Shown here: in pieces, positions 6,117-39,749 of the stretch
Numbering within the stretch: the stretch's first letter is position 1
Layout: every line of letters starts with the position of its first letter
Sequence record: PP216085
Length of the DNA stretch: 64,000 nucleotides
Source: Escherichia phage vB_EcoM_HZ_ZJUN4
Reading direction: 5' to 3' (one strand)
Notes under the pieces: generated by a model
Seen by the model: only the letters and a program-made list of their open reading frames with translations
Databases searched by the model: none
Told to the model about the DNA's origin: nothing
Program-made: the position numbers and the translations under genes

Positions 6117-6977
6117 ATGAAACAATACCAAGATTTAATTAAAGACATTTTTGAAAATGGCTATGAAACTGATGACCGAACAGGCACAGGAACAATTGCT
6201 TTGTTCGGTACTAAATTACGCTGGGATTTAACTAAAGGTTTTCCTGCAGTAACAACTAAGAAGCTCGCCTGGAAAGCTTGCATTGCTGAGCTACTTTGGT
6301 TTTTATCAGGAAGCACAAATGTCAATGATTTGCGATTAATTCAACATGATTCATTAATTCAAGGCAAAACAGTCTGGGATGAAAATTACGAAAATCAAGC
6401 AAAAGATTTAGGATATCATAGTGGTGAACTTGGTCCAATTTATGGAAAACAGTGGCGTGATTTTGGCGGTGTAGACCAAATTATAGAAGTTATTGATCGT
6501 ATTAAAAAATTGCCAAATGATAGGCGTCAAATTGTTTCAGCATGGAATCCAGCTGAACTTAAACATATGGCATTACCACCTTGTCATATGTTTTATCAGT
6601 TTAATGTGCGTAATGGATATTTGGATTTACAGTGGTATCAAAGAAGTGTTGACGTGTTCTTGGGCTTGCCATTCAACATTGCATCATATGCTGCATTAGT
6701 TCATATTGTAGCTAAGATGTGTAATCTTATTCCAGGAGATTTGATATTTTCTGGCGGTAATACTCATATCTATATGAATCACGTAGAACAATGTAAAGAA
6801 ATTTTGCGTCGTGAACCTAAAGAGCTTTGTGAACTGGTAATAGGCGGATTGCCTTATAAATTCCGCCATCTTTCTACTAAAGAACAATTGGAATATGTTC
6901 TTAAACTCAGGCCTAAAGATTTCGTTCTTAAAGGTTACGAATCACACCCTCCTATTAAAGGAAAAATGGCGGTGTAA
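6117..6977 (+). CDS. td: thymidylate synthase, 286 aa, uninterrupted (no group I intron)
   Basis: MKQYQDLIKDIFENGYETDDRTGTGTIALFG...; continuous 286 aa reading frame including catalytic PCH motif; AAGG RBS. Confidence 0.97.
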   Translation: MKQYQDLIKDIFENGYETDDRTGTGTIALFGTKLRWDLTKGFPAVTTKKLAWKACIAELLWFLSGSTNVNDLRLIQHDSLIQGKTVWDENYENQAKDLGYHSGELGPIYGKQWRDFGGVDQIIEVIDRIKKLPNDRRQIVSAWNPAELKHMALPPCHMFYQFNVRNGYLDLQWYQRSVDVFLGLPFNIASYAALVHIVAKMCNLIPGDLIFSGGNTHIYMNHVEQCKEILRREPKELCELVIGGLPYKFRHLSTKEQLEYVLKLRPKDFVLKGYESHPPIKGKMAV

Positions 6978-9850: not shown

Positions 9851-11029
9851 ATGAGCACAGTTTTTAATACAAATCCAGTTGATGTTTTAAAAGAACCTAT
9901 GTTCTTCGGTTCAGGTCTTGGTATTGCGCGTTATGATATTCAACGTCATAAAGTTTTTGAAGATTTAACTGAAAAGCAGTTGTCATTTTTCTGGCGTCCT
10001 GAAGAAGTAAACTTGATGATGGATGCTGCACAATTTAACAAGCTTCCTCAGTATCAACAAGATATTTTTACTAATAACCTGAAGTATCAATCACTTCTAG
10101 ATAGCATTCAGGGTCGTGCACCGTCTGCTGTACTTATGTCGTTAATTTCAGACCCAAGTCTTGATACATGGGTTGCTACATGGACTTTTAGTGAAACTAT
10201 TCACAGTCGTTCATATACTCATATCATGCGAAATCTTTATACTGATCCATCGAAGGTATTTGATGAGATTGTACTAGATGAAGCTATCATGAAACGTGCT
10301 GAATCTATCGGTCGCTATTATGATGATGTTCTGACTAAAACCCGTGAATGGGAAAATGCTAAAGAATTTACAGAACTAGCTAAAGAATCTCCTGATGCTG
10401 TTTTTCGTTTAAATCGAGCTATTAAACAAGAAGCCGAAGCTAAACGAGCACTAATGAAATCTCTTTACCTCTGTTTGCACGTTATTAATGCCTTAGAAGC
10501 TATTCGTTTTTATGTATCTTTTGCATGTACCTTTAACTTCCATAAGAACATGGAAATCATGGAAGGTAATGCCAAGATTATGAAGTTCATTGCACGTGAT
10601 GAGCAGCTTCACCTTAAAGGCACCCAATATATTATTCGTCAACTTCAATCCGGTACTGATGGCGATGAATGGGTTAAAATTGCTCAAGAGTGTGAACAAG
10701 AAGCAGTTGATATTTTCATGGAAGTTAACCGCCAAGAAAAAGATTGGGCAGTTCATTTATTTAAAGATGGCGATGTTCCTGGATTAAATACAAATAGCAT
10801 GTGGAGCTTTATTGATTACTTAACTGTATCTCGTATGAAACAGTGCGGTCTTCCATGCCCAATTACCGATGCTCCGGTTAAACATCCATATCCTTGGATT
10901 CGTGAATATCTTAATTCTGATAATGTTCAATCCGCGCCACAAGAAGTAGAACTGTCATCTTACCTTGTTGCACAGATTGATAATGATGTTGATGATAAAG
11001 TTATGATGAGTTTTAAAAAATACTTTTAA
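9851..11029 (+). CDS. nrdB: ribonucleotide reductase small subunit, 392 aa, uninterrupted
   Basis: 392 aa continuous ORF MSTVFNTNPVDVLKEPMFFGSG...; ferritin-like di-iron ligand motifs; no intron. Confidence 0.96.
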   Translation: MSTVFNTNPVDVLKEPMFFGSGLGIARYDIQRHKVFEDLTEKQLSFFWRPEEVNLMMDAAQFNKLPQYQQDIFTNNLKYQSLLDSIQGRAPSAVLMSLISDPSLDTWVATWTFSETIHSRSYTHIMRNLYTDPSKVFDEIVLDEAIMKRAESIGRYYDDVLTKTREWENAKEFTELAKESPDAVFRLNRAIKQEAEAKRALMKSLYLCLHVINALEAIRFYVSFACTFNFHKNMEIMEGNAKIMKFIARDEQLHLKGTQYIIRQLQSGTDGDEWVKIAQECEQEAVDIFMEVNRQEKDWAVHLFKDGDVPGLNTNSMWSFIDYLTVSRMKQCGLPCPITDAPVKHPYPWIREYLNSDNVQSAPQEVELSSYLVAQIDNDVDDKVMMSFKKYF

Positions 11030-14079: not shown

Positions 14080-15283
<1,204 letters not shown>

Positions 15284-15347
15284 TGGCTTTGCACCATGAA
15301 ACTTGGGATATTATTAATTGGCTTGAAGAAAATTATGTGAGGTAAAT

Positions 15348-18468: not shown

Positions 18469-18497
18469 AAGGACTCCTTCGGGAGTCCTTTTTTATT
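18469..18497 (+). terminator. rho-independent terminator
   Basis: AAGGACTCC-TTCG-GGAGTCCTT followed by TTTTTTATTTT. Confidence 0.75.
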
Positions 18498-18963: not shown

Positions 18964-19341
18964 TTGGAGAATAAAATGAACTACATCAACTTTGAACGTA
19001 AATATGTTTCTAATGGTATTGCAGGTTCTATTGATACTATCTGCCTTTGGAAACATCAAAATGGATCAGTATGCGAAATTGAACAGTATATGACTCCTAA
19101 CTACGTTTATATGCGATTTGAAAATGGCATCACGGTTTCAATCACGAAAGAAGGTTCTTCTTTTAAAATCGCATTAGATGATGATTTCCGTCAACGCGAT
19201 TTAGGTACTCATCCTTGCTGGAATGGCGTCAATCGTAAGCTTCTGGTTAAAACTTGGATTCGTCATATTCTGAGTAACAGAGCTAAACCTGAGCATCTTG
19301 AAGCAATCTTTGATGTAGTTCTTAACGAATTTGATATTTAA
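18964..19341 (+). CDS. hypothetical protein, 125 aa
   Basis: ORF with GGAGAA RBS. Confidence 0.55.
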   Translation: MENKMNYINFERKYVSNGIAGSIDTICLWKHQNGSVCEIEQYMTPNYVYMRFENGITVSITKEGSSFKIALDDDFRQRDLGTHPCWNGVNRKLLVKTWIRHILSNRAKPEHLEAIFDVVLNEFDI

Positions 19342-19381
19342 AATAAAACAGGGGCTTCGGCCCCTTACTGAGGAAAATACT

Positions 19382-19656
19382 ATGTTTATGACTACTTATT
19401 TTGATACCCGCAAAAATTTCTGTGAAGTGGTTTTCTCTAAGGCACCTAAAGACCTTCCTGCTCATTTGCAGCCTACCAGTGAATCGATTATACAGTCTGC
19501 CCTTTAGAGTTTCGTACTGTAAATGGGCGTGATACTCTAGCTATCGCTAAACTCAATCGTGAAATTGACATTGACCCTTCAATTGCGCGTGAAATTAACA
19601 TTTCTGACATTGGTGGCGGTAATGTTAAATCGCACGGTTTTCAGATGAGGTTCTAA
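19382..19656 (+). pseudogene. small gene split over two overlapping reading frames (frameshift or pseudogene)
   Basis: ATG at 19382 with GAGGA RBS opens a 41-codon frame ending at TAG 19505-19507; the -1 frame is open from 19483 to TAA 19654-19656 with no start codon until three codons before its stop. Confidence 0.4.
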
Positions 19657-19853
19657 TGAAATTCTTTTTAGGTCAAACTGTTGAATTAAAGGGAGTCGGT
19701 ATACCTGGATTAATTTCTAAGGTTCTACCTCCATTTAAATGGAGAGACGTTCAAATAAAAGAAGCTTATATTGTTTCCTGGGTAGATGGAAATGAAGACC
19801 TTCGTATGGGTGATGAATTATCTCCTATCTATGGATTAAAGGAATTAGTATGA
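19656..19853 (+). CDS. hypothetical protein, 65 aa
   Basis: ORF coupled to the upstream frame (TAATG). Confidence 0.5.
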   Translation: MKFFLGQTVELKGVGIPGLISKVLPPFKWRDVQIKEAYIVSWVDGNEDLRMGDELSPIYGLKELV

Positions 19854-20056
19854 ATATAATTAATAAGATTTTTGGAATTCAGTACATTAAGGTCACATAT
19901 AAAGTAACATATAAAGGTCCGTATACCGATGAACATGAAGAACCGCAAGTTAAGTCTATTATATTAGAAAAGGACCCTAACTGGCCAATTGAATTTCGTC
20001 TTCCTTGCTATGGTCATTGGGCTGATGTTGAAATTATAAGTATTGAAAATGTCTGA
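19850..20056 (+). CDS. hypothetical protein, 68 aa
   Basis: ORF coupled to upstream ORF. Confidence 0.5.
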   Translation: MNIINKIFGIQYIKVTYKVTYKGPYTDEHEEPQVKSIILEKDPNWPIEFRLPCYGHWADVEIISIENV

Positions 20057-20507
20057 GCTAGAGATAAGAAGCAATTTTAGATGGCCATCATGTGCATTAA
20101 GCAATTTCGCCCAATGGCCTTTCGTTATGGATGGTATCCAATTTGGAGGTCTCGAAGGATTCCTCCAAGGATGTAAGGTGAAAAATGTTGAACGGCAAAG
20201 ACGTATATTTGGGTTATCCGGGCTTGCCGCCCAACAAGCTGGAAGGTCTTATGCTAGAGCTCAGGACCGTGGCACGTTGTTCTGGCTTGGAACTCCGTTT
20301 TCAAGATATTCCGAAGCATGGAAAGAATTATACACAAATGCATATTTTGAAGCAGCGATCCAAAACAGGGGCTTTCGTGAGGCATTACAAGCTTCGAAAG
20401 GAAAAGTTTTGAAGCACAGCATGGCTAGCGGTCTAACAAAAGATGATACAATACTAACCGAAGCTGAATTTATTGATGTGTTAAACCTATTAAGAGACTC
20501 TCTATGA
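20043..20507 (+). CDS. NADAR (YbiA-like, DUF1768) domain protein, 154 aa
   Basis: Motif block SNFAQWPFVMDGIQFGGLEGFLQGCKV resembles the E. coli YbiA core (DFSNFAAWPIKVDGKTWPTSEHYFQAQKF) from memory. Confidence 0.6.
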   Translation: MKMSELEIRSNFRWPSCALSNFAQWPFVMDGIQFGGLEGFLQGCKVKNVERQRRIFGLSGLAAQQAGRSYARAQDRGTLFWLGTPFSRYSEAWKELYTNAYFEAAIQNRGFREALQASKGKVLKHSMASGLTKDDTILTEAEFIDVLNLLRDSL

Positions 20508-23297: not shown

Positions 23298-25391
23298 ATG
23301 GAACTCATTACAGAATTATTTGACGAAGATACTACTCTTCCGATTACAAACTTAAATCCAAAGAAGAAAATACCGCAAATTTTTTCAGTTCATGTTGATG
23401 ACGCAATTGAACAACCAGGCTTTCGTTTATGTACCTATACATCTGGAGGTGATACTAACCGTGATCTAAAGATGGGCGATAAAATGATGCACATTGTTCC
23501 TTTTACATTAACTGCTAAAGGTTCAATTGCTAAATTGAAAGGTCTCGGTCCAAGCCCAATTAATTACATCAATTCAGTTTTTACTGTTGCGATGCAAACG
23601 ATGCGTCAGTATAAAATTGATGCCTGCATGCTTCGTATTCTTAAGTCTAAAACTGCCGGTCAAGCTCGACAAATTCAAGTTATTGCTGATAGACTTATCC
23701 GTAGTCGTTCGGGTGGCAGATACGTCCTTCTTAAGGAACTCTGGGATTACGATAAAAAGTATGCATATATTCTTATACATCGCAAAAATGTATCACTAGA
23801 AGACATTCCAGGAGTTCCAGAAATTAGTACCGAGCTCTTTACTAAAGTTGAATCGAAGGTCGGCGATGTTTATATCAATAAAGATACTGGAGCTCAAGTA
23901 ACTAAAAATGAGGCAATTGCAGCATCTATTGCGCAAGAAAATGATAAACGTTCTGACCAAGCTGTAATCGTTAAAGTTAAAATTTCCCGTAGAGCAATTG
24001 CACAAAGTCAGTCATTAGAATCTTCTAGATTTGAAAGTGAATTATTCCAGAAATATGAATCTACCGCAGCTAATTTCAATAAACCTGCTACAGCTCCTTT
24101 AATTCCCGAAGCAGAAGAAATGAAGCTTGGAATTAATTCATTAGCTTCTAAAACTAAGGCAGCAAAAATTATTGCCGAAGGAACCGCAGATGAACTTCAC
24201 TATGACTATAAATTCTTTTCAAAAAGTGAGGTTAATGAAGTTTCTGAAAAAATTAAAGACGTAATTTTTAACGCGATCAAAAATGAACCAACTACTTCAA
24301 TAAAATGTTTAGAGAAGTATGCAGCAGCTATTAATAAATTCTTTGAAGAATATAAAGATACTTGGCTTGATAAACATAATAAAACTCGTAAAGGGCAGTC
24401 AGATGAAGTCTGGGAAGAAATAACTAAAAATTCCTGGAACGCAGCAAAAACTAAATTCCTCAAACGAATGATTTATAGCTTTTCTGGAATTGGTGCAGGT
24501 CCAATGATTGATATTACTATTGCCCGTGATGGTTCTAAATATACTCCATCGCAAAAGCGCGGCATTAGAGAGTATTGTGGATCAGGATATACTGACATCA
24601 ATAATCTTCTTTTAGGCCGCTACAATCCAGAACGATATGATGTAATGAGTGAAAAAGAAATTGAATCTGCGATAAATAATTTAGATTCAGCTTTTGAAAA
24701 TGGTGACCGTATACCAGAAGGCATTACAGTTTATCGTGCTCAAAGTATGACTGCTCCTATATACGAAGCGCTAGTTAAAAATAAAGTGTTCTATTTCAGA
24801 AATTTTGTATCTACTTCTTTAACTCCTATCATTTTTGGACGTTTTGGAATTACACATGCTGGTATCGGTCTTTTAGAACCAGAAGCTCGTAATGAATTAA
24901 CAGTTGATAAAAATGAAGAAGGAATAACTATTAATCCAAACGAAATAAGAGCGTATAAAGAAAATCCTGAATACGTTAAAGTTCAAATAGGATGGGCAAT
25001 TGATGGAGCTCATAAAGTTAATGTTGTATATCCAGGAAGTCTCGGAATAGCAACAGAAGCTGAAGTTATTCTACCACGCGGATTGATGGTCAAAGTTAAT
25101 AAAATAACTGATGCTTCTAATAATGACGGAACAACATCTAATAATACAAAACTCATTCAAGCTGAAGTTATGACTACGGAAGAACTCACCGAATCGGTAA
25201 TTTATGACGGTGACCGTCTAATGGAAACGGGTGAAGTAGTTGCAATGACAGATGATATTGAAATAGAAGACAGAGTTGACTTTGCATCATTTGTTTCATC
25301 AAATGTTAAACAGAAAGCAGAATCATCTCTCGGAATTATTGCGTCTTGCATAGATATTACAAACATGCCTTACAAGTTCGTTCAAGGATAA
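23298..25391 (+). CDS. alt: Alt ADP-ribosyltransferase (capsid-packaged, injected), 697 aa
   Basis: MELITELFDEDTTLPITNLNPKKKIPQIFSVHVDDAIEQPGFRLCTYTSGGDTNRDLKMGDKMMHIV... matches T4 Alt; C-terminal ART triad elements YRAQ, FVSTSL, EAEVILPRG. Confidence 0.93.
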   Translation: MELITELFDEDTTLPITNLNPKKKIPQIFSVHVDDAIEQPGFRLCTYTSGGDTNRDLKMGDKMMHIVPFTLTAKGSIAKLKGLGPSPINYINSVFTVAMQTMRQYKIDACMLRILKSKTAGQARQIQVIADRLIRSRSGGRYVLLKELWDYDKKYAYILIHRKNVSLEDIPGVPEISTELFTKVESKVGDVYINKDTGAQVTKNEAIAASIAQENDKRSDQAVIVKVKISRRAIAQSQSLESSRFESELFQKYESTAANFNKPATAPLIPEAEEMKLGINSLASKTKAAKIIAEGTADELHYDYKFFSKSEVNEVSEKIKDVIFNAIKNEPTTSIKCLEKYAAAINKFFEEYKDTWLDKHNKTRKGQSDEVWEEITKNSWNAAKTKFLKRMIYSFSGIGAGPMIDITIARDGSKYTPSQKRGIREYCGSGYTDINNLLLGRYNPERYDVMSEKEIESAINNLDSAFENGDRIPEGITVYRAQSMTAPIYEALVKNKVFYFRNFVSTSLTPIIFGRFGITHAGIGLLEPEARNELTVDKNEEGITINPNEIRAYKENPEYVKVQIGWAIDGAHKVNVVYPGSLGIATEAEVILPRGLMVKVNKITDASNNDGTTSNNTKLIQAEVMTTEELTESVIYDGDRLMETGEVVAMTDDIEIEDRVDFASFVSSNVKQKAESSLGIIASCIDITNMPYKFVQG

Positions 25392-25394
25392 ATC

Positions 25395-27452
25395 ATGGAA
25401 CTTATTACAGAATTATTTGACGGCGCTTCGGCGCCGGTTGTTAACTTAAATCCTAAGCATAAAATACCTCAAATTTTTGCTATTCAAGCAGGTGAAGAAA
25501 GCGTGCTTCCTGGATTTAGATTTTGTACATACACCTCTGGCGGTGATACAAACAAAAACGTTAAGCCAGGCGATAAAATGATGCATATCGTAATGATAGG
25601 TGTTAATGAGAAACTATCATTAGTTAAACTTAAAAACTTGGGTGGAAATCCAATTGGTGTCATTAATGCGGTTTTTGATACTGCTCTTCAAACAATGAAA
25701 CAGTATAAAATTGACGCATGCCTATTCCGCGTACTAAAGAGTAAAACAAACGGTGCAGCTCGTCAAATGCAAGTTATTGCCGACCGTTTAGTACGTACTA
25801 AAGGAGCAGGTCGATATGTTCTTTTAAAAGAAATCTGGGACTATGATAAGAAATATGCATATATTATGGTTTACCGTAAAAATGCCAATTTAGAAGACAT
25901 TCCAGGTGTACCTCCTATTTCAACTGAGTTATTCACAAAGGTTGAATCAAAGGTTGGTGATGTTTATGTAGATGTTAAAACAGGTAATGCTGTTCCTAAA
26001 GCTGTTGCTGTTGCTGCTTCTATTGCTTTAGAAAATGATAAGCGCACAGATCAAGCTGTTATTCAGAAAACTAAAATTAGTCGTCGATTAGCAGCACAAG
26101 CTCAATATTCTACTGTCGATGCTTCGCTTCAGGGTGATAGCTTCGCTGCTAAGAAATACCAAGAGTTTGAATCTAAAGTTCCGGTATATAAAGCAGAAGG
26201 ACCAATGAACTCCGGCGTTATTCAGGTTGGTTCAAACTTCAGCAAAGGAGCTATCGGTGGTATGAGAAGTGCTTCTCGTTTTAAATCTAATGATTATGAA
26301 CTAGAAAGCTTCCGAAATCATATTGCATTGGCTCATGCACGTTTACGTGATCCATCTATCAAGTTACAGAGCGATATAACATATCAAGGTTCTCAAGAAT
26401 ATTTAAAGAATAAAGAATTTTTTGATTATAAAACTGATAAAATTTTAAGCGATCTTGCTGACATTAATATTTCTAATAGCTTTGATGTTATTAAGAAAAT
26501 TGTCAATGATTTAGTTAAAGGTTCTAAAGCCACGCCAGATGAAAAGGTAGCTATTGTTCAATTTGTCATGAATGGCATTTATAAATTGATTAATGAGTCT
26601 GCTTCTCAAGCGTATGAATATGCAAGTACTGAAGTACCCCCAAAAGGATTAACTCGGGCTGAGTCTGATGTAATTGAAGATTATTGCGCAGATTCATATG
26701 TTGAAATGAACTCGTTCCTTTTAGGTAAACCAGATTCTACTCGTGAAGAATATATGGAACGAGCTATTAAACACATCGAGACAATGGATTCTGCCTTTGC
26801 CAAAGGATCAGTTCTTCCTCCAGGAACTACGCTTTACCGTGGACAAGAAGTTACCTTTAAAACTTTACGTCATAATATTGAAAATAAAATGTTCTATTTC
26901 AAGAACTTCGTATCCACATCGCTTAAACCAAATATCTTCGGTGAGTATGGTAAAAACTATATGGCTCTAGATGATTCTGGTGCAGTATTTTCTGGTGAAG
27001 GAGAAGGTTCAGTTGATGCTGAAGATTTAATGCATATGGGTAGTCACTCTGCTTATGCGAATGAAGATGCTGAAACTAGCGTAGGTATGGTAATTAAAGG
27101 GGCTGAGCGAATTAAAGTTATCGTTCCAGGTCATTTATCAGGATTTCCATCAGAAGCTGAAGTTATTTTACCACGTGGAATTTTGCTGAAGATTAATAAA
27201 GTGAGTACGTACATGATGAAAGAAACTGCTTATAACAAGTATCTAATCGAAGGCACAATCGTTCCTCCTTCTGAACAATTAGAAGAATCGGTATATGATG
27301 GCGATCATCTAATGGAAACTGGTGAAGTTCGTCCAATGGTTGGATTTAATCAATTCCTTGTAGAAGAATCAAAAGAAGAGGAAAACGAAGTTTCTCAAAT
27401 CTTGGCTTCTTTGGTTAACATCAATGAAATGTCTAAAAAGTTCAAGATGTAG
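25395..27452 (+). CDS. second Alt-like ADP-ribosyltransferase paralog, 685 aa
   Basis: Same MELITELFD leader and conserved N-terminal/central block as alt, divergent middle region, retains ART triad elements (YRGQ, FVSTSL, EAEVILPRG); AAGGA RBS 6 nt upstream. Confidence 0.85.
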   Translation: MELITELFDGASAPVVNLNPKHKIPQIFAIQAGEESVLPGFRFCTYTSGGDTNKNVKPGDKMMHIVMIGVNEKLSLVKLKNLGGNPIGVINAVFDTALQTMKQYKIDACLFRVLKSKTNGAARQMQVIADRLVRTKGAGRYVLLKEIWDYDKKYAYIMVYRKNANLEDIPGVPPISTELFTKVESKVGDVYVDVKTGNAVPKAVAVAASIALENDKRTDQAVIQKTKISRRLAAQAQYSTVDASLQGDSFAAKKYQEFESKVPVYKAEGPMNSGVIQVGSNFSKGAIGGMRSASRFKSNDYELESFRNHIALAHARLRDPSIKLQSDITYQGSQEYLKNKEFFDYKTDKILSDLADINISNSFDVIKKIVNDLVKGSKATPDEKVAIVQFVMNGIYKLINESASQAYEYASTEVPPKGLTRAESDVIEDYCADSYVEMNSFLLGKPDSTREEYMERAIKHIETMDSAFAKGSVLPPGTTLYRGQEVTFKTLRHNIENKMFYFKNFVSTSLKPNIFGEYGKNYMALDDSGAVFSGEGEGSVDAEDLMHMGSHSAYANEDAETSVGMVIKGAERIKVIVPGHLSGFPSEAEVILPRGILLKINKVSTYMMKETAYNKYLIEGTIVPPSEQLEESVYDGDHLMETGEVRPMVGFNQFLVEESKEEENEVSQILASLVNINEMSKKFKM

Positions 27453-37875: not shown

Positions 37876-37904
37876 GTCTAAATACCATGTAATAAATATA
37901 TCTA

Positions 37905-37912
37905 TATTTATA
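37905..37912 (-). promoter_or_regulatory. late promoter (TATAAATA on - strand) for uvsW
   Basis: + strand TATTTATA 30 nt upstream of uvsW start. Confidence 0.55.
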
Positions 37913-37925
37913 CTGAGGAAATATT

Positions 37926-38615: not shown

Positions 38616-39749
38616 ATGGCTTTTACAGTTGATATAACTCCTAAAACACCTACTGGAGTTATAGATCAGACTCAGCAGTTTACTGCTACACCCAGTGGTG
38701 AAACTGGAGGTGGAACTATTACCTATGCTTGGACTGTAGATAATGTTCCACAAGATGGGGCTGAAGCAACTTTTAGTTATGTACTAAAAGGACCTGCCGG
38801 TCAAAAGACTATTAAGGTGGTTGCAACAAATACAATTCCAGATACTGATGCTGAAACAGCAGAAGCTACTACAACTATTACAGTTCAAAACAAGACACAG
38901 ACAACTACCTTAGCTGTAACTCCTGCTAGTCCTGCTGCTGGAGTAATTGGAACCCCAGTTCAATTTACTGCTGCCTTAGCTTCTCAACCATCAGGTGCAT
39001 CTGCTACGTATCAGTGGCATGTAGATGATTCTCCTGTGAGCGAAGCAACTAGTGCTACATTCAATTACACTCCTACTACAAGCGGAGTTAAAAAAATTAA
39101 GTGTGTAGCTCAAGTAACCGCGGCAGATTATGATGCACTGAGCGTTACTTCTAATGAAGTATCACTGACTGTTAATAAGAAGACAATGAATCCACAGGTT
39201 ACACTGACTCCTCCTTCTATTAATGTTCAGCAAGATGCTTCGGCTACATTTACTGCTAATGTTACTGGCGCACCTGACGCAGCACAAATTACTTACTCGT
39301 GGAAGAAAGATTCTTCTCCTGCAGAAGGGTCAACTAATGTATACACTGTTGATACATCATCTATTGGAAGTCAAACCATTGAAGTTACTGCAACTGTTAC
39401 TGCAACTGACTATGATAGCAAAACTATCACAGCAGAAGGTCAAGTTCAGGTAACTGATAAAGTTGTTGCTCCGGAACCAGAAGGTGAATTACCTTATGTT
39501 CATCCTCTTCCACATCGTACTTCAGCTTATATCTGGTGCGGTTGGTGGGTTATGGATGAAATCCAAAAAATGACTGAAGAAGGTAAAGATTGGAAAACTG
39601 AAGATCCAGATAGTAAGTACTACTTGCATCGTTACACTCTTCAGAAGATGATGAAAGACTATCCAGAAGTTGATGTTCAAGAATCACGTAATGGATACAT
39701 CATTCATAAAACTGCTTTAGAAACTGGTATCATCTATACCTATCCATAA
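38616..39749 (+). CDS. hoc: Hoc highly immunogenic outer capsid protein (Ig-like repeats), 377 aa
   Basis: Three T/S/V-rich Ig-like repeat units then C-terminal capsid-binding domain ...LPYVHPLPHR...GIIYTYP; matches T4 Hoc. Confidence 0.95.
   Translation: MAFTVDITPKTPTGVIDQTQQFTATPSGETGGGTITYAWTVDNVPQDGAEATFSYVLKGPAGQKTIKVVATNTIPDTDAETAEATTTITVQNKTQTTTLAVTPASPAAGVIGTPVQFTAALASQPSGASATYQWHVDDSPVSEATSATFNYTPTTSGVKKIKCVAQVTAADYDALSVTSNEVSLTVNKKTMNPQVTLTPPSINVQQDASATFTANVTGAPDAAQITYSWKKDSSPAEGSTNVYTVDTSSIGSQTIEVTATVTATDYDSKTITAEGQVQVTDKVVAPEPEGELPYVHPLPHRTSAYIWCGWWVMDEIQKMTEEGKDWKTEDPDSKYYLHRYTLQKMMKDYPEVDVQESRNGYIIHKTALETGIIYTYP

Follow-up and report, generated by a model that had tools for sequence, protein, structure and literature searches.

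A 13-nt deletion splits the ortholog of T4 gene 30.6 across two reading frames in an Escherichia phage genome

Layout of the locus between 30.7 and 30.5

The window analysed here is a 64,000-nt stretch of DNA from Escherichia phage vB_EcoM_HZ_ZJUN4 (record PP216085), and the features of the locus described below lie on its plus strand. Upstream of the locus stands an ORF (18976-19341) that matches the Pfam family Phage_T4_Gp30_7 with E=1.3e-51, and downstream, on the same strand, follow the orthologs of 30.5, 30.4 and 30.3, the ORF at 20049-20507 matching Phage_30_3 with E=3.2e-68. This order is collinear with that of phages EP01 and T4T. Between the stop codon of 30.7 and the ribosome-binding site of the next gene lies a C(UUCG)G-type hairpin, AGGGGC-UUCG-GCCCCU (19350-19365, plus strand), which is the only stable element in a fold of 19340-19420 and is conserved in phages JE01 and W143. 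On the plus strand the hairpin is not followed by a T-run; read on the minus strand, it has a T-rich tail and scores like a terminator. A similar UUCG hairpin, this one with a T-run, is found at 18469-18490, after 30.9.

The gene that follows the hairpin begins conventionally. A Shine-Dalgarno sequence, GAGGA, can be read at 19370-19374, with 7-nt spacing to an ATG at 19382, and the identical sequence precedes 30.6 in those relatives in which the gene is annotated from this ATG. The frame opened by this ATG runs for 41 sense codons to a TAG at 19505-19507, and its product would be MFMTTYFDTRKNFCEVVFSKAPKDLPAHLQPTSESIIQSAL. The -1 frame is closed upstream by a TGA at 19480-19482, is open from 19483 to a TAA at 19654-19656 (57 sense codons plus the stop), and contains a single ATG, GTG or TTG codon, the ATG at 19645, three codons ahead of the stop. 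The two frames overlap by 22 nt (19483-19504). The ATG of the next gene, 30.5, lies at 19656 and overlaps the stop of the -1 frame as TAATG. A preliminary description of this DNA, made from the letters alone, had listed the GAGGA, the ATG and its 41 codons up to the TAG, the nearly startless -1 frame, the overlap of about 22 nt and the TAATG junction, and each of these elements proved correct on re-reading the sequence.

Relationship to gene 30.6 and the missing 13 nucleotides

Phage records that match a 1.2-kb segment surrounding the locus number 723, nearly all of them Tequatrovirus, with identities of up to 97.9%, and a 24-kb stretch of the window is matched in phage records at up to 97.5%; with these as the best identities, the window must come from a T4-like phage that is itself absent from the searched collection. 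Where relatives are annotated, 30.7 and 30.5 flank an ORF of 95 codons. It is named 30.6 in T4T, JS98 and VR7, and in W143 the orthologous ORF carries the label of the T4 protein, 'uncharacterized 10.8 kDa protein in Gp30-rIII intergenic region'. When the products of the two frames were compared with the phrog_2153 profile, the N-terminal fragment covered positions 1-37 (E=9e-15) and the C-terminal fragment positions 42-95 (E=5e-26), and such complementary halves of one profile in two adjoining frames are far beyond chance. A tblastn search gave the same division: residues 1-36 of EP01 gp30.6 match window positions 19382-19489 with 100% identity, and residues 42-95 match 19492-19653 in the other frame. 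The translation of the C-terminal remnant is identical to residues 42-95 of JE01 gp30.6.

The split locus is the ortholog of the bacteriophage T4 early gene 30.6 in a Tequatrovirus genome. The preliminary description had placed a single gene of about 90 aa, spread over two frames, in the T4 30.x region, and synteny together with the two profile halves confirms both the placement and the gene's identity. With T4 gene 30.6 the window locus shares its position between 30.7 and 30.5, its Shine-Dalgarno sequence, its start and the TAATG overlap, and Tequatrovirus orthologs share 94-100% identity with its first 36 and its last 54 residues. It differs from the T4 gene in being 13 nt short, which divides the ORF between two frames and limits the product to a 41-aa fragment. 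Precomputed public annotation assigns Pfam PF26902 (Phage_T4_Y12K) to all homologs, including a 58-aa product (P0018) called at this locus. The label of 'early' gene given in the preliminary description fits the transcript of the neighbouring 30.7, a known early mRNA that is cleaved by RegB (PMC9409239).

Elsewhere the gene is intact almost without exception. A tblastn search with the intact gp30.6 protein found 721 phage records, in 719 of which a single locus accounts for 80% or more of the query; the other two very likely represent one and the same phage, vB_EcoM_005 (discussed below), deposited in both GenBank and RefSeq. In a protein-guided scan of IMG/VR, all 13 loci with a homolog match residues 1-95. 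Nine orthologs drawn from Tequatrovirus, Dhakavirus and Mosigvirus all have 95 codons, and their pairwise Nei-Gojobori dN/dS values are 0.01-0.24, low in both halves of the gene. Given the intact copies and the low dN/dS, 30.6 is a real coding gene under purifying selection, and its split state is exceptional. Set against these selected, intact orthologs, the window copy carries a frame-disrupting lesion, as a pseudogene made by deletion would. The uninterrupted ORF of about 95 codons expected of the gp30.6 family is absent here, its place taken by two frames and a 13-nt deletion, and the locus thus reads, on its sequence, as a broken version of the family gene, whether a disrupted allele or a pseudogene, and not as a functional member.

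The nature of the lesion is the one point on which the preliminary description went astray, since it had supposed a single-nucleotide indel. Alignment with the T4-family orthologs of JE01 and W143 located the indel at 19489-19491 (plus strand) and revealed a single gap of 13 nt in the window (AAAAACTATGTTA, or equivalently AAAACTATGTTAA) and otherwise nothing notable. An exhaustive placement test found two equally good positions, one A apart, with the junction at 19489/19490 or 19490/19491 and the missing bases at positions 109-121 or 110-122 of the gene. Four whole codons, K37-N38-Y39-V40, are lost along with the initial base of codon 41; of these residues, K37 and Y39 are shared without exception by 16 homologs. 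Beyond the deletion, the 54 conserved codons of the C-terminus are no longer in frame. The truncated 5' part of the gene (19382-19507) accordingly consists, by translation, tblastn and phrog_2153, of 36 native codons, five out-of-frame codons (IQSAL) and the TAG, and the 3' remnant (19492-19656) consists, by the same three lines of evidence, of codons 42-95 and the TAA, with neither a start nor a Shine-Dalgarno sequence of its own. Because codons 37-40 and a base of codon 41 are gone, frameshifting of any kind could not rebuild the native protein.

Microhomology at the deletion amounts to 1 nt only. Slippage between TTAA direct repeats was considered and rejected: the near-repeats ATTAA and GTTAA lie 12 nt apart and predict an in-frame loss of 12 nt. 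No simple slippage mechanism for the loss of 13 nt seems evident from the bases around the junction.

The lesion is private to one deposited genome. All full-coverage phage matches to a 91-nt query laid across the junction span 104 nt. Exact-pattern scans of IMG/VR, metagenome contigs and GTDB genome contigs did not find the junction sequence, negatives that are weak on their own, since an exact-pattern scan of IMG/VR for the intact allele also gave nothing. The 58-aa product called at the locus (P0018) is WVX92605.1, 'hypothetical protein N4000037' of Escherichia phage vB_EcoM_HZ_ZJUN4, and with about 15 billion proteins compared, this truncated product stands as a singleton. Besides the deletion, the gene differs from that of JE01 by 2 synonymous substitutions, and its C-terminal 54 codons encode the same residues as those of JE01 (100% protein identity). 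The remnant shows no decay subsequent to the deletion, a state that suits a very recent event and an artefact equally.

Origin of the split frame

The reading that best accommodates these observations is a recent, gene-inactivating 13-bp deletion in a conserved 30.6, which would make the locus a young pseudogene; we regard this as likely, and the deletion as presumably biological rather than an assembly error. Ribosomes starting at the ATG at 19382 would add 36 native residues and five wrong ones before stopping at the TAG at 19505. The sole product to be expected is thus a 41-aa fragment in which the best-conserved portion, VCPxEFRTVNGRDTL together with the C-terminus, is missing, and the last 54 codons of 30.6 would stay in the mRNA untranslated. 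The obvious competitor is an artefact of sequencing or assembly, in which the phage truly has an intact 95-codon 30.6 and 13 nt were lost when the consensus was built. Such an origin would explain why the junction occurs in a single deposited genome only and why the remnant is otherwise perfectly preserved, but a loss of 13 nt in non-repetitive, non-homopolymer DNA is an atypical base-calling error, and 19470-19511 contains no run of 5 or more identical bases. The quality of the consensus was gauged by translating the 88 annotated CDS of EP01, the closest relative, that are syntenic with the window, and searching them against it. Full-length, single-frame matches, one apiece, were obtained for 83 of the 88; three are absent, as differences in gene presence; one (Hoc) differs in length while keeping a single frame; and 30.6 alone is split across frames. 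With 83 genes full-length and none of the other compared CDS split, the consensus does not appear to be prone to indels, and an artefact is rather unlikely. The preliminary description had favoured a pseudogene or a sequencing error over recoding, and this preference is upheld by the private 13-nt deletion, the want of a recoding signal and the intact relatives.

Recoding would have to join the two frames during gene expression. A -1 frameshift in 19483-19504, whether programmed or fortuitous, would yield a fusion of about 91 aa, one possible route being a slip of the P-site tRNA-Leu from CUU to CCU with UAG in the A site. A stop codon in the A site (CUU-UAG) does provide a pause, and ribosomes shifting at any point of the 22-nt overlap would enter the C-terminal frame. 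Programmed -1 frameshifting is known from the A AAA AAG site of E. coli dnaX and from the G/GT tail chaperone of phage lambda, and the window resembles these systems in that two overlapping frames together make one protein. Unlike them, however, it has no in-register heptamer, no significant stimulatory structure and no conserved split. The absence of a canonical X XXY YYZ heptamer, remarked upon in the preliminary description, holds for the whole of 19483-19504: CCCTTTA at 19500 fits the register of the downstream frame and misses that of the upstream one, and AAATTTC at 19414 is in register, but its -1 frame is closed by the TGA at 19480-19482. The fold of 19500-19690 has an energy of -42.7 kcal/mol (z=-1.5), and 14 of 200 shuffled sequences fold equally well. 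Nor is the two-frame state conserved, given the single frame seen in 719 of 721 phage records and in 13 of 13 IMG/VR loci, and a fused product would still be without the invariant K37 and Y39. With the junction created by a private deletion and the gene a single ORF in relatives, selection has had no opportunity to build a recoding signal here. Programmed frameshifting, the alternative raised by the preliminary description, thus finds no support in a usable slippery site, a conserved split or a significant fold, and -1 frameshifting of either kind is very improbable. Other forms of recoding are harder still to credit, namely a prfB-like +1 shift at CUU-UAG, transcriptional slippage, or a bypass of the kind seen in gene 60, from the CUU at 19502 to a CUC at 19552. 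A sense codon CUU immediately before a stop codon does recall the take-off context of prfB and of T4 gene 60, and the CUC at 19552-19554, read by the same tRNA, lies 47 nt downstream in the correct frame. The +1 frame, however, stops at 19532 and never joins the C-terminal frame; transcriptional slippage lacks a homopolymer run of at least 5 in 19470-19511; and a bypass would leave out residues 42-61, the best-conserved motif. In contrast to prfB and gene 60, the arrangement stems from a private deletion, which rules out the evolution of bypass signals at the junction, and no gene 60 signal could be seen. The remaining reading, that two truly separate small genes are present, has in its favour the two open frames themselves and is scarcely tenable: the downstream frame has no Shine-Dalgarno sequence and no ATG, GTG or TTG until three codons before its stop, one family profile covers both parts, the first with its N-terminal and the second with its C-terminal half, and relatives with two separate small genes, which were looked for, are absent, a single 95-codon ORF standing in their place.

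Probable loss of gene 30.6, the downstream gene and other features of the window

The gp30.6 protein has no match in NCBIfam or in the copy of Pfam searched (a copy that does not hold the PF26902 model) and no relative in the PDB (best E=0.94), and an AlphaFold2 model built from 16 homologs is poor, with a pLDDT of 56 and a pTM of 0.43. A literature search on 30.6 found nothing. There is a second natural knockout. Escherichia phage vB_EcoM_005 (MK295203.1 / NC_055783.1; L005:3001-3168) has a 112-nt frameshifting deletion in 30.6, the remnant of which is annotated as a short hypothetical protein of 55 aa (YP_010100462.1); among 93 matching records, this deletion is carried by that phage only. 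The two cases are alike in that each is an independent frameshifting deletion in 30.6, their starts lying about 8 nt apart. They differ in size, 112 nt lost as against 13, in the place where the shifted frame stops, and in genus-level background, vB_EcoM_005 being closest to Bp7-type Dhakavirus sequences.

The independent deletion in vB_EcoM_005 supports the dispensability of 30.6 and suggests that this conserved gene is not needed for plaque formation on at least some hosts. That a strongly conserved gene (dN/dS about 0.1, intact in 719 of 721 records) has been knocked out twice, by deletions whose starts lie within about 8 nt, also invites an adaptive explanation, in which gp30.6 is sensed by a host defence and the deletions are escape mutations; this is a long shot, and the two losses could equally be neutral, arising from laboratory propagation. 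The recorded host of vB_EcoM_005 is O157:H7. Whatever their cause, the second natural knockout makes the pair a modest lead for the study of the uncharacterised T4 30.x cluster.

The 30.5 ortholog downstream of the lesion is intact (19656-19850). The TAATG overlap between the 30.6 stop and the 30.5 start has the same arrangement in T4T, JS98, Bp7 and p000v, and upstream truncation of 30.6 would deprive 30.5 of any termination-reinitiation coupling at this site. The protein is probably still made from its own signals, a GAGG at 19647-19650 and the ATG at 19656-19658, all on the plus strand. An RNAalifold analysis of nine phages retained a 7-bp helix between 19505-19511 and 19649-19655 (UAGAGUU with GGUUCUA), with no compensatory changes. 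Its 3' arm (19649-19655) covers part of the 30.5 Shine-Dalgarno sequence and the spacer, and its 5' arm starts exactly at the new premature TAG. Conservation of this predicted helix could stem from coding constraint, and it is best regarded as an unproven lead. Searches against Rfam gave no match at the gathering score anywhere in the window, and near the locus only a chance-level miRNA match.

The chief value of these observations lies in annotation: the locus should be flagged as a disrupted 30.6 and not mistaken for a novel small gene or a site of recoding. The 58-aa ORF of the public record (19331-19507, plus strand), which appears in the ORF list with a TTG start and is identical to WVX92605.1, is an over-extended call that begins within the 3' end of 30.7 and runs across the hairpin. 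Several 30.6 homologs (P0003, P0009, P0010 and P0015; 105-107 aa) likewise have N-terminal extensions that pass through the intergenic hairpin, and these are probably annotation artefacts. Another homolog, P0017 (82 aa, from a 997-bp ENA contig), switches at its C-terminus to CLLYTSPSPRDLS, which we take to be translated sequencing adapter at the contig end and not a real variant.

Other features of the window came to light in the course of these comparisons. Inside 30.3 (20049-20507) the alternative frame of 30.3' is open at 20185-20412 on the plus strand, encoding 75 aa that are 80% identical to T4T gp30.3'. The Hoc-like ORF at 38616-39749 encodes 377 aa in one frame, as against 283 aa in EP01, a difference that appears to correspond to a domain-sized segment. 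The window lacks two small ORFs that adjoin the polynucleotide kinase gene in EP01, as well as the homing endonuclease that EP01 has next to its helicase gene (sites at about 15281-15347 and about 37876-37925). In T4 the genes for thymidylate synthase and the ribonucleotide reductase beta subunit carry introns. Their counterparts here (6117-6974 and 9851-11026, respectively) give uninterrupted, single-frame matches, and because no Rfam family reaches the gathering score in the window either, this phage seems to be without the T4-type introns in both genes. Finally, two Alt-like RNA polymerase ADP-ribosyltransferase genes stand in tandem at 23298-25388 and 25395-27449, as they do in EP01.
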